Assembly (NCBI GenBank): GCA_052034935.1
Contig: JBPOIB010000005.1
Location: 16,357-80,356, forward strand
Direction of reading: 5' to 3'
Source of the DNA: Candidatus Moraniibacteriota bacterium
GTDB taxonomy: Bacteria; Patescibacteriota; Minisyncoccia; Moranbacterales; UBA1568
Length of the DNA stretch: 64,000 nucleotides
Within the stretch, counting starts at the first letter, position 1; every line of letters starts with the position of its first letter. Shown here one piece after another: positions 281 through 51,095 of the stretch. The position numbers and the translations under genes are program-made. Below the pieces are notes generated by a model, which made no database searches, had not been told where the DNA came from, and was given only the letters and a program-made list of their open reading frames with translations.

Positions 281-352
<72 letters not shown>

Positions 353-361
353 CAACCTATA

Positions 362-24805: not shown

Positions 24806-25705
24806 ATGGCCAAAGCAAACTCACAATCAATCAGAAGTTTTCTTGCGAATTCCGGCTATCTCATCCTCGTTTTTGTCTTTGCTTTTGCGATTGCGACTCA
24901 GGCGCTCATGCACAAGATTAATAATTATGAGCTGAATAAGAGTCTTATATTTCTGCTCGTGAAAAAGGAGCGAGTCGATGTATCGACGACAGTAAGCGGT
25001 CGTGTTGAAGAAATTCTTGTGCGCCCGGGAGTCCATGTGAACGAGGGAGATGTGCTGGTCCGTTTGAAAGACGACGGCCGTGAACTCAAGATTGCGGCGC
25101 TTCGCCCGGTGGCTCGCGAGAATCTTTCAGCTCGTACCGAACTAGAGCTGCTTTTATCTCAGGAAAATGAATACGAGCTCCGCGCCCCGCGGTCCGGTGT
25201 CGTAGAGTCGATCTTATCTACCAAGGGGACGACCGTCATCAACGGCGCAGTGGTGCTGATTGTGTATGCTGATGATGAGCTCGAGCTTGTCGGGACAATT
25301 CGACCAGAGCAGTATAATTTGATCGACAAACACCGAAGTATTAGTATCTTCAACCCGCGTCTCGGTCAAGCCTTCACGGCTTCATTCCAGGGGATTACTG
25401 GCGTACGGGATGATCTTCTGCCAGATGGTACGATTGCTCCAATACAGCAGCCGGGTGGTCAGTCGACAAACGACCAGCAGCCAGTGGAGATGTACGAGAT
25501 ACGCTTCGCTCTTAACGAAAAAGAAGAGGGCGCATCCTTTATTGAGGGCGAGCGGCTGGAGGTGATTTCTGAAAATGCCGACATCGAGCAGGAGAAGCCG
25601 ATTTATCGGCTCGCCAAGCTCTGGAACAGCCTCATCCTCGGAACGGACTTCGAATCGCTTCGGAAATATAATGAAGGAAAAAATGATTCTCAAGAATCGC
25701 AGTAA
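24806..25705 (+). CDS. HlyD/membrane-fusion-like protein (single N-terminal TM, lipoyl-like hairpins)
   Basis: VSGRVEEILVRPGVHVNEGDVLVRL and YELRAPRSGVVESI resemble the beta-barrel/lipoyl motifs of periplasmic adaptor proteins. Confidence 0.45.
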   Translation: MAKANSQSIRSFLANSGYLILVFVFAFAIATQALMHKINNYELNKSLIFLLVKKERVDVSTTVSGRVEEILVRPGVHVNEGDVLVRLKDDGRELKIAALRPVARENLSARTELELLLSQENEYELRAPRSGVVESILSTKGTTVINGAVVLIVYADDELELVGTIRPEQYNLIDKHRSISIFNPRLGQAFTASFQGITGVRDDLLPDGTIAPIQQPGGQSTNDQQPVEMYEIRFALNEKEEGASFIEGERLEVISENADIEQEKPIYRLAKLWNSLILGTDFESLRKYNEGKNDSQESQ

Positions 25706-27641
25706 GTGGATCGTGCTCGGAACCGCCGTCCTGGCGGTTCTTTTCTGGCAAGTATTTTCATCGCCAATGAAACCGGAGAGTGAGGTGATTCTCGAGGAAA
25801 AAAAGTTCGCTCCTGAGACGCGTGGCGTACCGCTCCGAACCAATACCTGGTTCTCGAGCCTTTTCTTCCAATTCCCAACCGCTCCGCTCTTTGTCTTCCC
25901 CGGATCATACCAGTTGAATGAGCGCGGCCTCTCGGTCAGCGATTCGAATGCTCTTGGTACGGAAAATACCATCTTCGGGAGCTTTGATCCACTCTGCGAT
26001 ATCGCTGGGCCGTTGCCTCTCACGGGCGTGAAAGTAGAACGGTACGGTGACTGGGATATCGTCGCCCGGGTGATATCGAAAGAGGGAGCAGCCTGGTCAG
26101 CACATTTCATCCAGGGATCGCCGGTCGTCAATATCGGCGACTTCTCAGAACCCCTTTCTTTTTCCTGCAAGCCAGGAATAGAGGTGTCAAACTACCGGAG
26201 CGACACCCTTCTGGCTCGCCAGGGTGACCAGCCGGTATTCCTGGTTCAAGCAGAGAGTCCGATTGCCGAGTCCGGAGGACTCCGTTCAGCTACTGGAAAG
26301 TACCGGATCATCCAGGTACCAAAAGAGACGGCCCAGCCTCTCGATTTTTTCCTCGATCTTCCCTGGGTGACCATACTCGATACGCAGTATGCGACATCGG
26401 ATCGGGATGGCTTCTTGCATACGCAGCTCGTGACCGTGACCGGAGATGACGAGCCTATTCTCATGACACTCTGGCCGCATCATCGTCTCGGCGGTGCCGA
26501 AATTCGGGGTGAACAGTTGGGGAGTTACTCCACGGTCTATGGTCGGCTGGATCTGCAACTCTCGAATCGGATTGATATTGAAACAGCCAAGCCAAAGCTT
26601 GTAACCGGCTTCTCGCCCGTCTCTGGCCAGAAGTCAGTCGAAGAAATACGCTCGGCGGTGAAAGAGGATACTGCTCGCTATCTGTCCGAGACGATACCGG
26701 GCGGAGTTTACTTCCGTGGTACCTGGCTCGGTGGTCTCGCGAGCGTCATCCAGTTGGCTGAAGCCTATGGAATGGACGAAGAGGAGCGAGTATTGCTTGA
26801 TCTTCTGGAGCGCCAGCTTCGGAGTTCACTCGTCGACTTTGCCTATAGCGAAGAAAAAAAGATGTTCATCGCTTCGAAAAATTCCGAATTCGGCAATGAG
26901 AAGGGGAACGACCATCACTTCCACTACGGTTACTACCTGCGCTCAGCCGCGGTTTTGTTCGATGCCCGTCCGGCTGCGGGCGATGACTTGAAAGCGATCC
27001 TCGATGAGATGGCACTCGATATCGCGAATAGCGACCGGTCATCGGAACGCTACCCTTTTCTCCGTCACTTCTCACCGTACGCCGGACACTCGTGGGCGGA
27101 CGGGGAAGCGCTTTTCCAAGATGGGAACAATCAGGAATCATCATCGGAAGCGATGAATGCCTGGTACGGGCTGTATCTCTGGGGGAAATCGACTGACAAT
27201 AGTCGTCTTACGAAGATCGCCACAGGCCTCTATACCAATGAACTCCTCGGCCTCCGGAGCTACTGGTTCGGCGAAGGGAATCCATTTCCGACAGGATTTG
27301 AGCATCCGCTCGTTTCGCTCGTGTGGGGCGGGAAACGCGATTATGCGACCTGGTTCAGTGGGGACCCGATGCATATCCAAGGGATTCAGTGGCTACCCAT
27401 CACGCCGGCATCCGAGTATCTCGGAACGTTGCCGAATCAGCCGGAACGGATGAGGGATCTCGGTCTGGATCCTTCCGCGGCCGCGGACCATGAGTGGGGC
27501 GACCTCTATATCGCGTACCTTTCCTCTTTTGACCCGGTCGAAGCGGCGAAGCATCTCGACACTGCCTCAAAACGCCAAGCAATCAAATCGAAAGCGTTGC
27601 TGTATCATGTCGTCCTGATGAATCTGGAAAACAGGCGGTAG
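25683..27641 (+). CDS. GH81-like endo-beta-1,3-glucanase, membrane-anchored/extracytoplasmic
   Basis: AAGGA RBS; N-terminal TM. ...NDHHFHYGYY... and ...NQESSSEAMNAWYGLYLWG match, from memory, the GH81 catalytic motifs (Asp in DHHxHYGY; ExxxE pair). Confidence 0.5.
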   Translation: MILKNRSKWIVLGTAVLAVLFWQVFSSPMKPESEVILEEKKFAPETRGVPLRTNTWFSSLFFQFPTAPLFVFPGSYQLNERGLSVSDSNALGTENTIFGSFDPLCDIAGPLPLTGVKVERYGDWDIVARVISKEGAAWSAHFIQGSPVVNIGDFSEPLSFSCKPGIEVSNYRSDTLLARQGDQPVFLVQAESPIAESGGLRSATGKYRIIQVPKETAQPLDFFLDLPWVTILDTQYATSDRDGFLHTQLVTVTGDDEPILMTLWPHHRLGGAEIRGEQLGSYSTVYGRLDLQLSNRIDIETAKPKLVTGFSPVSGQKSVEEIRSAVKEDTARYLSETIPGGVYFRGTWLGGLASVIQLAEAYGMDEEERVLLDLLERQLRSSLVDFAYSEEKKMFIASKNSEFGNEKGNDHHFHYGYYLRSAAVLFDARPAAGDDLKAILDEMALDIANSDRSSERYPFLRHFSPYAGHSWADGEALFQDGNNQESSSEAMNAWYGLYLWGKSTDNSRLTKIATGLYTNELLGLRSYWFGEGNPFPTGFEHPLVSLVWGGKRDYATWFSGDPMHIQGIQWLPITPASEYLGTLPNQPERMRDLGLDPSAAADHEWGDLYIAYLSSFDPVEAAKHLDTASKRQAIKSKALLYHVVLMNLENRR

Positions 27642-48775: not shown

Positions 48776-49168
48776 TTATTTGCTAGTGACGGCCTCTTTT
48801 TTCTCCTCTACCTTTCCAGATTTCCCGAGGACGTTCTTGACGAGAGCAGTGAAGACGGCTGGGTTCTCTACGGCCATTTCTGAGAGAACTTTGCGGTCGA
48901 GGGCGATGGATTTGGTCTTCAGAAAAGCAATGAATTTAGCATAGCTCGTGCCGTTCTCTCGGAGAGCATTGTTGAGGCGGACGATCCAGAGGGCGCGGAA
49001 GGTGCGCTTCTTGGCTCGGCGGTCACGGCGAGCGTACTTCCCAGCCTTGATGACGGCTTCCTTGGCTTTCGTGAAGAGCTTTTTGCGGCCCCAGCGGTAG
49101 CCTTTAGCCTTCTTCAGGATGTTGTTGTGGCGCTTTTTGGTCATTACGCCGCGCTTGACTCGGGACAT
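48776..49168 (-). CDS. rplT: 50S ribosomal protein L20
   Basis: [28 protein letters not shown] is the canonical L20 N-terminus. Confidence 0.9.
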
Positions 49169-49252
49169 ACGGTGAAAAAATCGAATTTAGGAATGCTCTA
49201 TTCTGTCTCAAAAAGGGAAAGAAGTCAAATCTCTCGCCTAGCAAATCCTCAT

Positions 49253-49450
49253 TTATGACTTGAGGAGGGCTCGCTTGACGTTCTTTACGTCGACCGCGAG
49301 GACGATATGGTCGCCGCGCTTTGCTCGGGTCGCTTTGCCGGTATCGCGGGTATTGTAGTGGTTCTGGCCCGTCGATCGGCGCTTCAGCTTACCGGTTCCG
49401 GTGACTTTGAACTTCTTCGATACGTTCTTCTTCGTCTTCATCTTGGGCAT
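49253..49450 (-). CDS. rpmI: 50S ribosomal protein L35
   Basis: MPKMKTKKNVSKKFKVTGTGKLKRR...; 65 aa. Confidence 0.85.
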   Translation of the reverse strand: MPKMKTKKNVSKKFKVTGTGKLKRRSTGQNHYNTRDTGKATRAKRGDHIVLAVDVKNVKRALLKS

Positions 49451-49489
49451 AAGGTTCTCTCGTTTAAATTCATTATAGATAATCGCTGT

Positions 49490-50038
49490 TTACTCGGGCA
49501 CGATGAGGATGCTGAATCCGCGCGGCCCCCGAGTTACGTTCTCCTCGATCTTGTGGGGGACGGTGATCGATTTTACGAAGGCAAGGAGATTCTCTTTCGC
49601 TTTGTCGCCCATCGCCTTCTCGCGGCCGCGGAGCATCAGGTCGATCTTCACCTTGTTGCCCTTGAGCATGAATTTCTCGGCCTGGGATTTTTTGAAAAAG
49701 AGATCGTGCTTTTCGGTTCGGTAGCCGAGACGGACACCCTTAGTCTCGACTTTCTTCTGTTTCGTCTTGGCGACCTGAGCCTGCTTTGCTTGCTGGTACT
49801 GGAGTTTGCCGTAGTCGGTGATACGACAGACAGGCGGTACGGCCTGCGGGGAAACCTCGACGACATCGAGGCCTTTTTCCTTGGCGATGACCATCGCCAC
49901 CGCCGGCGCCATGGTGCCGAGATTTTCGCCTTCTTCCGTGATGACGACAACCTCCGCGGCGAGGATCTGCTCGTTCACGCGGTAACGTTGTTTGACAACG
50001 ACTTTCGGTTTCGGGCGATGGTGCCTTCTTCGTCTCAC
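49490..50038 (-). CDS. infC: translation initiation factor IF-3
   Basis: ...RVNEQILAAEVVVITEEGENLG... and the C-terminal KGVRLGYRTEKHDL...KIDLMLRGRE. The start is probably non-AUG, as is common for infC. Confidence 0.85.
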   Translation of the reverse strand: MRRRRHHRPKPKVVVKQRYRVNEQILAAEVVVITEEGENLGTMAPAVAMVIAKEKGLDVVEVSPQAVPPVCRITDYGKLQYQQAKQAQVAKTKQKKVETKGVRLGYRTEKHDLFFKKSQAEKFMLKGNKVKIDLMLRGREKAMGDKAKENLLAFVKSITVPHKIEENVTRGPRGFSILIVPE

Positions 50039-50060
50039 GAGGGTAACGATAAAAACTTAG

Positions 50061-50461
50061 TGGAGTTGATGGGAATTGCACCCATGTCCAGTAACGGTAT
50101 TCCAAAATAGACTACAAGCGTAGTGTGCTTTGTTTACAGACAAAAGGTAGAAAGCGCACAAAATCCTTTCGTCAGCTTTTCTTTGGCAATACAACTTGAG
50201 GCGTAAAGAAAAAGAAATGTCCTCGCGTCGTCTCAATGGTTATGGCACCAGAGTTTCCCTATTGAGAATCGGGAGTCCGATGGCTTCGCGCAATATTAGG
50301 CGAGAGCAGGAGCGAAAGACGGAGCAAACGCTTGCGCGATTGCGTTCTTTGCTTTGGTGATGAAGTTTGCAGTTATCATCGTGAGAACGAGTTTTACGAT
50401 CATGTTCTCAAGATCGGCTTGCCTATTTTAAAAGTGCGTTCTGTCGAGTCTAGACAACCCC
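50061..50461 (-). ncRNA. ssrA: tmRNA (SsrA)
   Basis: Minus-strand reading gives a 5' GGGGUUGUCUAGACUCGACAG... that pairs with the 3' ...CAACUCCA (G3:U70 wobble, A discriminator). T-arm AUGGG-UGCAAUU-CCCAU. Internal tag ORF GCA AAC UUC ... GCU CUC GCC UAA = ANFITKAKNAIAQAFAPSFAPALA*. Located immediately downstream of smpB. Confidence 0.75.
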
Positions 50462-50503
50462 CGCCCACAACACTTCTTGCGAAGGGTTTCGGGCGGGGAG
50501 GGT

Positions 50504-50959
50504 TTAGTAATTCTTCATCTCGCGGCGGATGCGGCGATCGCTCTCGCGCTTGCCGATATCAGCGCGCTTATCGTGCTGCTTTTTTCCCTTGCCGACGGCA
50601 AATTCAAGCTTCACGAGTTGCCTCTTAATATACAGACGAATCGGGATCAAAGTCAAGCCTTCAGTCCGGGCTTTTCCGATGAGACTACGGATTTCCGAGC
50701 GCCGGAGGAGAAGGGTGCGCGGCCGGCGGTCATCATGGTGGATTTTCACGCTGGCTCGGGCATAGCGGGGGATGAGGGCGTTCGTCAGGACGAGTTCGGT
50801 GCCGTGAATCGTGACAAAGGCGCCTTTGAGGCTGGCATGGCCGGTTTTCACGCTCTTCACCTCGCCGCCGGTCAAGACCAAGCCCGCCTCATAGTGGTCC
50901 TGGAGGGCGTAATCAAAGGGAGCGCGGCGATTGTAGGCGATTTCTTTGCCTGGTTTCAT
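50504..50959 (-). CDS. smpB: SsrA-binding protein SmpB
   Basis: ...IAYNRRAPFDYALQDHYEAGLVLTGGEVKS...LIPIRLYIKRQLVKLEFAVGKGKKQHDKR. Start taken at MKPGKE. Confidence 0.85.
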   Translation of the reverse strand: MKPGKEIAYNRRAPFDYALQDHYEAGLVLTGGEVKSVKTGHASLKGAFVTIHGTELVLTNALIPRYARASVKIHHDDRRPRTLLLRRSEIRSLIGKARTEGLTLIPIRLYIKRQLVKLEFAVGKGKKQHDKRADIGKRESDRRIRREMKNY

Positions 50960-51095
50960 AGACTTATCTAGCTTCTGTATACCAGAAATGGCCGTGTAAA
51001 GCCATTCTTTGAATCTTCCGGTAGTTGACAATATACACCAAAAGTAGTAATATGTAAAGTCGACAAGTCGTCGATGCGTACCCTCGGAGTACTCC

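Follow-up and report, generated by a model that had tools for sequence, protein, structure and literature searches.

The segment at positions 50061-50461 on the minus strand of the window (the whole stretch of 64,000 nucleotides analysed here) is almost certainly ssrA from a Candidatus Moranbacteria/Moraniibacteriota bacterium, coding for a standard one-piece tmRNA with four pseudoknots. The Rfam tmRNA model RF00023 matches the minus strand at 50058-50461 from end to end (model positions 1-374 of 374) with 109.1 bits and an E-value of 1e-41, and since the gathering score of this model is 47 bits the gene is readily found by a standard covariance model. The sequence-only reading of this DNA had placed a tmRNA here, as the match bears out. 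Its further remark that such a gene is easy to miss by standard covariance models does not hold, the score being more than twice the gathering threshold and only ARAGORN at default settings missing the gene. The features by which the standard tmRNA family is defined are found at the locus as far as sequence can show them, with partial support for pseudoknot 3, and the gene is, as judged from its sequence, genuine and functional-looking. It is also an ordinary gene of a known kind, because the long tag and the T-loop G are common to its relatives and to other bacteria; the two deviations belong to the lineage, and databases already contain them. The gene and its neighbours are arranged as follows:

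50061-50461, minus strand: ssrA, coding for a one-piece tmRNA; 401 nt, G1 to discriminator A; called by RF00023 and ARAGORN -ps
50504-50959, minus strand: smpB, the tmRNA protein partner, 151 aa; PF01668, E-value 5.6e-49, 166 bits, profile positions 1-143 of 143
50459-50498, minus strand: leader hairpin between the smpB stop and ssrA, -31.4 kcal/mol
48776-50038, minus strand: infC-rpmI-rplT operon, directly downstream of ssrA, gene order kept in relatives
49490-50038, minus strand: infC, Pfam IF3_N/IF3_C
49253-49450, minus strand: rpmI, Pfam Ribosomal_L35p
48776-49168, minus strand: rplT, Pfam Ribosomal_L20

On the minus strand the gene extends from the 5' G at 50461 to its discriminator A at 50061, and the Rfam match runs 3 nt further (CUA) to 50058. 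As the discriminator A is followed by CUA, the CCA end is not encoded in the window gene, unlike in the E. coli type. The E. coli tmRNA has 363 nt, compared with 401 nt for the window gene. The 29-nt string of T-arm and acceptor strand occurs as a single copy in the window and in 0 of 100 shuffles, and no second copy of the ssrA 3' end was found within the window. The integration of a genomic island with duplication of the ssrA 3' end was rejected on the grounds that this end is single-copy in the window. An open reading frame of 267 aa on the plus strand (49307-50110) overlaps the 3' end of ssrA; it is antisense to infC and was taken as spurious.

The gene order given by the sequence-only reading, with smpB upstream of ssrA and infC-rpmI-rplT downstream, is confirmed by the Pfam matches listed above, and smpB is intact and lies immediately upstream of the tmRNA gene. 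The best SmpB homologues, with 70-95% identity, bear the names Candidatus Moranbacteria or Moraniibacteriota, which by taxonomy look-up is a phylum in the Parcubacteria/Patescibacteria group (candidate phyla radiation, CPR). The relatives' loci were drawn from the contigs encoding eight SmpB homologues and from six close loci (60-74% identity) of an SmpB metagenome scan; the other 74 loci of that scan belong to generic bacteria, with around 45% identity, and were used solely as a small set of controls, for the canonical T-loop and for tag length. In the relatives smpB is followed by a gap of approximately 400-700 nt and by infC-rpmI-rplT, with argS nearby in most of them, and Rfam finds a tmRNA in each gap with 91-127 bits, or 62 bits in the locus L001, which is truncated at its 3' side by the contig end. 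The tmRNAs of other Patescibacteria/Moranbacteria carry the same or nearly the same tag, they match the window gene in T-arm, gene order and pseudoknots and differ from it only by point substitutions. For Patescibacteria, a tmRNA database records 5,275 tmRNA genes among 6,765 genomes (PMC11915505 Table S2). Biologically, the locus would only confirm that trans-translation is intact in a CPR bacterium with a reduced genome.

In the leader hairpin, CCCCGCCC (50498-50491) pairs with GGGCGGGG (50466-50459), the last 3 nt of which are G1-G3 of the tmRNA. An equivalent hairpin of different sequence is present in six relatives' loci (L081, L083, L084, L085, L087 and L089).

The tRNA-like domain is formed by the following elements:

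50455-50461, minus strand: acceptor stem 5' strand GGGGUUG, 7 of 7 pairs with 50062-50068; G3 is 50459
50062-50068, minus strand: acceptor stem 3' strand CAACUCC; the U70 equivalent is 50064 and the discriminator A is 50061
50444-50454, minus strand: D-loop analogue UCUAGACUCGA, with A11 and G12 (50451 and 50450) where most tmRNAs have GG
50069-50085, minus strand: T-arm AUGGG-UGCAAUU-CCCAU, with the loop at 50074-50080 and G55 at 50079

All seven pairs of the acceptor stem are formed and include the alanine identity pair G3:U70 (50459:50064) to which the sequence-only reading had pointed, a G:U third pair being found in 14 of 14 relatives. The T-arm consists of a 5-bp stem, which is 100% paired in the relatives, and a loop of 7 nt in which U54, C56 and A58 are retained. 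The loop sequence UGCAAUU was correctly read from the DNA; of the relatives, 13 have a readable T-arm and 12 of these show the form UGCRAUU, position 57 being A in the window and G in some relatives, and the most distant relative, L006, has CUCAAUA. Both the tag and the T-loop had been described as deviant. The features themselves are present, but they are normal for the lineage, with the T-loop G in at least 120 species and long tags already known. A scan for the 3' context with one genome per species located G55 in tmRNAs from many phyla, with at least 120 species, and the matches listed include Caulobacter, Brevundimonas, Phenylobacterium, Asticcacaulis and Elusimicrobia, and further Isosphaeraceae (including Singulisphaera acidiphila), Acidobacteria, Clostridia, Omnitrophus, Berkelbacteria and Saccharibacteria. 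In the same scan Caulobacter, Brevundimonas, Phenylobacterium and Asticcacaulis display UGCGAUU together with AG in the D-loop. The G of the C. crescentus tmRNA at the position of E. coli U342 was recorded by Burks et al. 2005 (PMC1168896). The T-loop G is thus a real and widespread variant that is documented already.

The elbow of the domain shows a coupling between the two loops. The D-loop analogue and the T-loop were parsed from 138 tmRNA loci, and G55 was accompanied by AG in the D-loop in 120 of 121 loci, which comprise 63 distinct sequences from many phyla with two-piece forms included, while U55 was accompanied by GG in 16 of 16. The G55 loci had been selected with a search pattern that allowed only GGG/CCC in the T-stem and the U55 control is small, with only these 16 loci. 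In the tRNA elbow G18 contacts U55 and G19 pairs with C56 (PMC7912444). With A11 and G12 placed at tRNA positions 18 and 19 by analogy, and not from a structure, A11 (50451) and G55 (50079) of the window would form a swapped elbow contact, which would support a working tRNA-like domain. G55 may accordingly be regarded as one half of a coupled change by which the elbow was rebuilt, not damaged. A literature search that covered largely papers outside subscription journals found nothing on the coupling of D-loop AG with T-loop G beyond a single remark on Caulobacter. If the A:G elbow holds, the tmRNA of these lineages would have no need for TruB modification at position 55.

The same residue could be taken as a sign of decay, with the T-loop G breaking the tRNA elbow and the gene surviving as a non-functional relic. 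Such a reading would draw on the mismatch with the UUCRANY consensus at what is pseudouridine 55 in tRNA and on the lack of an ssrA call by ARAGORN default. Its probability is nevertheless negligible, as the T-loop G is fixed across the lineage, is coupled with the G-to-A change of the D-loop in 120 of 121 loci from many phyla and is found in the tmRNA of Caulobacter crescentus (PMC1168896). The covarying helices, the coding selection on the tag frame and the intact adjoining smpB, with its full-length Pfam match, also stand against a relic, and this explanation is effectively refuted. The recurrence of G55, its coupling to the D-loop and its presence in C. crescentus (PMC1168896) indicate that U55 is a consensus feature of tmRNAs and not a defining one.

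ARAGORN, a heuristic tool, at default settings reports for the window only a tRNA-Asn at 281-353 and no tmRNA. The run of ARAGORN and Infernal that the sequence-only reading had recommended was therefore positive in part: the Rfam model finds the gene, and so does ARAGORN -ps, with its lower threshold, which recovers the wild-type gene and reports the 24-aa tag, but the ARAGORN default does not. The change G55U alone or A57G alone restores default detection, with the same 24-aa tag. Similarly, the relatives with UGCGAUU are found by ARAGORN default and those with UGCAAUU are missed. Only 3 of 13 Moranbacteria relatives are reported at default, and default calls are obtained in 54 of the 80 G55 loci examined. 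The gene falls short of the default threshold because its T-loop deviates from the consensus at two positions, and in comparison with relatives that have G at T-loop position 57 it is the A there that brings the window gene below it. Pipelines that use ARAGORN only will thus under-report ssrA in the Moranbacteria lineage, where Infernal with Rfam finds it easily.

The body of the RNA is organized by helix 2 and four pseudoknots:

50417-50443, minus strand: helix 2 5' strand, in place of the anticodon arm, RNA positions 19-45; pairs with 50089-50119
50089-50119, minus strand: helix 2 3' strand, RNA positions 343-373
50382-50416, minus strand: pseudoknot 1, RNA positions 46-80, with stem 1 at 46-50/61-65 and stem 2 at 52-58/74-80
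50231-50282, minus strand: pseudoknot 2, RNA positions 180-231, helices 87-100% paired, stem 2 compensatory in 5 of 7 pairs
50176-50229, minus strand: pseudoknot 3, RNA positions 233-286, all pairs standard in the window
50124-50173, minus strand: pseudoknot 4, RNA positions 289-338

The structure was examined with 15 aligned tmRNAs, the full structure (acceptor stem, helix 2 in three sections, four two-stem pseudoknots and T-arm) being drawn from the window sequence. All 98 of its 98 pairs are standard in the window. Over the 15 sequences 85.8% of cells are paired, compared with 44-51% after a shift of the 3' partners by 1-3 columns, and 54 of the 98 pairs have changed on both sides; the observed percentage paired and covariation score were reached by 0 of 500 shuffles. 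The minimum free energy fold (404 nt) has a z-score of -2.57, and in it the acceptor stem, T-arm and helix 2 form unaided, as do several stems of the pseudoknots. The outcome that the sequence-only reading had named as counting against its proposal, no model match together with no tRNA-like fold and pseudoknots, did not occur, and no observation of the analysis speaks against the identification.

Helix 2 contributes 24 pairs and closes the whole mRNA-like and pseudoknot region; its three sections are 84-100% paired and 9 pairs have changed on both sides. In pseudoknot 1 pairing reaches 93% of cells for stem 1 and 89% for stem 2, both partners having changed in 3 of 5 and 5 of 7 pairs, respectively, and the resume codon GCA follows 11 nt after the end of this pseudoknot. 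In pseudoknot 4, stem 1 is 82% paired with changes on both sides in 9 of 9 pairs and stem 2 is 72% paired with 6 of 8 (15 of 17 in total). Pseudoknots 1, 2 and 4 are thus well supported by the alignment, and pseudoknot 3 is partly supported, with 60-68% of cells paired across the relatives in a raw, unrefined MAFFT alignment. The alignment to related tmRNAs, which had been suggested for verifying the resume codon and the pseudoknots, hence favours the resume codon and three of the pseudoknots in full and pseudoknot 3 in part. As the number of pseudoknots varies among accepted tmRNAs, the degree of support for pseudoknot 3 has no bearing on membership in the family.

The mRNA-like part of the gene comprises two elements:

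50371-50381, minus strand: single-stranded stretch CGAUGAUAACU upstream of the resume codon, with the U-A at -5/-4 invariant in 15 relatives
50296-50370, minus strand: tag frame, resume codon GCA at 50370-50368, 24 codons, stop UAA at 50298-50296

The encoded peptide of the window is ANFITKAKNAIAQAFAPSFAPALA, with 24 aa and a PALA end, so that the earlier claim of a 24-aa tag ending in FAPALA before UAA is upheld. The frame has 24 codons in the same phase in 14 of the 15 aligned sequences and 20 codons in the remaining one. The consensus of the relatives' tags is ANFITKAKNA[I/F/V]A[Q/S]AFAP[S/T]FA[P/L/F]A[L/R]A, in which both ends are conserved, ANFITKAK (in 13 of 15 relatives) at the start and FAPSFAxAxA at the finish. 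The variable columns at codon positions 1, 2 and 3 number 7, 5 and 19 over the whole tag in the 12 closest sequences. They number 5, 3 and 10 over codons 1-11 and 6, 5 and 12 over codons 12-24. The control segments give 8, 7 and 10 for the 33 nt upstream of the tag and 11, 8 and 8 for the 36 nt downstream. The third-position bias is therefore displayed by both halves of the tag frame and is absent in the flanks, a pattern that shows the frame of 24 codons to be under coding selection.

A shorter tag of about 13 aa (AQAFAPSFAPALA) would be obtained if the ribosome resumed at an internal alanine codon and the 11 codons upstream were left untranslated, and with lowered thresholds ARAGORN does give 13-aa tags (AQAFATNFASALA and AQAFAPSFAFARA) for two relatives, L004 and L086. 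Both of these calls have a local cause, the former locus having ACA for GCA at the resume position with the frame unchanged and the latter an insertion of about 40 nt past the stop with GCA and the 24-codon frame kept, while the tag that ARAGORN reports for the window itself has 24 aa. The third-position bias of codons 1-11, which resembles that of codons 12-24 and has no counterpart in the flanks, and the invariant U-A at -5/-4, after which the GCA is positioned 11 nt past pseudoknot 1, argue against the 13-aa tags of the two relatives. The conservation of ANFITKAK in 13 of 15 relatives and of exactly 24 codons in phase in 14 of 15 is also at odds with an untranslated upstream part, and the shorter tag is very improbable. 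The full frame of 24 codons is the tag followed below.

This tag is shared beyond the window. A peptide identical to ANFITKAKNAIAQAFAPSFAPALA is encoded in the GenBank Moraniibacteriota MAG_644 (locus L164), and long tags of 22, 21 and 28 aa are found in other Patescibacteria/Saccharibacteria loci. The control loci have a median tag of 10 aa, with an LAA ending in 11 of 17, and two of them (L008 and L040) have tags of 25 and 22 aa that resemble those of Moranbacteria; the Omnitrophus tag has 26 aa. Patescibacteria-like loci repeatedly carry tags of 19-28 aa whose FAP/APA ends are alike, and the long tag is a trait of the Patescibacteria lineage. In a tmRNA database of 97,179 sequences, tags of 10 aa are encoded most often (PMC11915505).

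Compared with the standard tmRNA (RF00023, E. coli SsrA), the window gene likewise displays a tRNA-Ala-like domain with G3:U70, helix 2 and an SmpB partner, and likewise has pseudoknot 1 before the GCA, a hydrophobic and alanine-containing tag end followed by UAA and, with partial support for pseudoknot 3, three downstream pseudoknots. The differences concern the tag length, 24 codons where 10 are most usual (PMC11915505), the tag end, ALA against LAA, the T-loop, UGCAAUU against UUCRANY, and the D-loop, AG against GG. The tmRNA of Caulobacter crescentus has, like that of the window, a G in the T-loop where E. coli has U342 (PMC1168896). In contrast, the Caulobacter gene is circularly permuted with a two-piece RNA where the window gene is one-piece, its tag has about 13 codons instead of 24 and its tmRNA, unlike that of the window, is without pseudoknot 4 (PMC1168896). 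The Mycoplasma tmRNA resembles the window gene in its unusually long tag, its reduced genome and a hydrophobic C-terminus that is not LAA (PMC8403727). This likeness concerns tag length, tag end and genome reduction, and a functional parallel would be a hypothesis.

By analogy with established trans-translation, the RNA would be processed at its 5' end and CCA would be added, because it is not encoded. Alanyl-tRNA synthetase would charge the tmRNA with alanine through the G3:U70 pair, and the tmRNA together with SmpB and EF-Tu would enter the empty A site of a stalled ribosome and accept the nascent chain. The ribosome would then switch to the resume codon, add ANFITKAKNAIAQAFAPSFAPALA and terminate at UAA, and the hydrophobic, alanine-terminated tag would send the product to an AAA+ protease.

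The reader of this tag may possibly be Lon or FtsH rather than ClpXP-SspB, a suggestion to which we give an appreciable chance that falls short of even. The tag would then differ from an E. coli-type ClpXP degron and would act either as a bipartite signal for Lon or FtsH or through an adaptor on the N-terminal ANFITKAK, comparable to the 27-aa Mycoplasma tag that switched to Lon; this tentative proposal has a greater chance of being wrong than right. The conservation of both tag ends, ANFITKAK and FAPSFAxAxA, and the recurrence of 19-28 aa tags with FAP/APA endings in other Patescibacteria-like loci are consistent with it, as is the case of M. pneumoniae, a cell lacking ClpXP in which proteins bearing the 27-aa tag are broken down chiefly by Lon (PMC8403727). 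The points against it are that the 24 window ORFs compared with Pfam gave no match to the Clp, Lon or FtsH families, that a literature search on CPR and ClpX or Lon returned nothing relevant and that a hydrophobic-Ala tag end could be tolerated by ClpX-type recognition.

A joint reading of the two departures would hold that G55 with AG forms a distinct and repeatedly evolved tmRNA elbow, with A:G replacing G18:pseudouridine-55, and that the long bipartite tag of Patescibacteria marks a Mycoplasma-like switch of degradation away from ClpXP-SspB. We consider this combination doubtful, and neither the alternative elbow nor the protease switch would be specific to this window. The coupling of AG with G55 and the conserved long tag may be mildly useful to researchers of tmRNA structure and of degrons, as features general to tmRNAs and not special to this locus.

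The D-loop dinucleotide of tmRNA is tightly coupled to T-loop position 55, at positions 50450–50451 and 50079 of the window and across the L004–L211 loci, the tmRNA genes taken from other genomes and metagenome contigs. A G at position 55 is accompanied by D-loop AG at 120 of 121 loci (63 distinct sequences from many phyla, picked by a pattern fixing the T-stem as GGG/CCC), the two-piece tmRNAs of Caulobacterales being among those that carry both. In the small comparison set with U55, the D-loop dinucleotide is GG at 16 of 16 loci. By analogy, the AG/G55 state looks like a swapped form of the G18:U55 elbow contact of the tRNA type, and no description of AG–G55 coupling in tmRNA was found in the literature searched. 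A third type, outside both the AG/G55 and the GG/U55 class, is represented by L006 (1023–1429), a more distant relative with 62% SmpB identity, where the T-loop reads CUCAAUA, with C at position 54 and U at 55, and the D-loop dinucleotide is AG. A tRNA of the window provides a comparison for the elbow:

281–353, plus strand: tRNA-Asn (GUU)

This tRNA has a canonical T-arm, GGUUCGAAUCC, and a GG D-loop. Thus, at least for this one tRNA, the G55/AG elbow is a property of the tmRNA specifically, not one shared by tRNAs across the genome.

Two relatives deviate elsewhere in the molecule. In L004 (834–1236) the resume codon GCA is replaced by ACA (Thr), which leads ARAGORN to choose a later tag start; the 24-codon frame is unchanged and encodes the tag TNFITKGKSTFAQAFATNFASALA. 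The tmRNA of L086 (3240–3682) reaches 443 nt; in the region of helix 5, past the stop codon of the tag, it carries an insertion of about 40 nt. The gene adjoining it encodes a 1,712-residue alpha-2-macroglobulin-like protein with Hint/intein domain matches.

Several features lie around ssrA and smpB:

49307–50110, plus strand: 267-aa ORF, antisense to infC and overlapping the ssrA 3′ end
50459–50498, minus strand: strong hairpin (−31 kcal/mol) in the gap from the smpB stop codon to ssrA
50627–50656, minus strand: promoter-like site TTGACT-18-TATATT (10/12 matches)
51030–51058: second promoter-like site, upstream of smpB

The 3′ arm of the hairpin takes in mature tmRNA bases 1–3, and the structure could be an smpB terminator or a precursor-processing element. 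Hairpins of the same shape and different sequence adjoin the ssrA 5′ end in L081, L083, L084, L085, L087 and L089; an equivalent is absent at this position from the more distant L004–L006. The first promoter-like site falls within the smpB coding region and precedes the 5′ end of ssrA by approximately 165 nt. ssrA may be transcribed from its own promoter or together with smpB. The antisense ORF is almost certainly spurious, and a gene caller could annotate it and thereby hide the RNA gene.

The window also encodes two P-type ATPases and a MacB-type ABC system, together with:

25575–27641, plus strand: glycosyl hydrolase family 81 protein, 688 aa
34606–39132, minus strand: AcrB-type RND pump (1,118 aa) and a weakly HlyD-like partner

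Gene content such as this glycosyl hydrolase and RND pump is somewhat unexpected in a reduced CPR genome.
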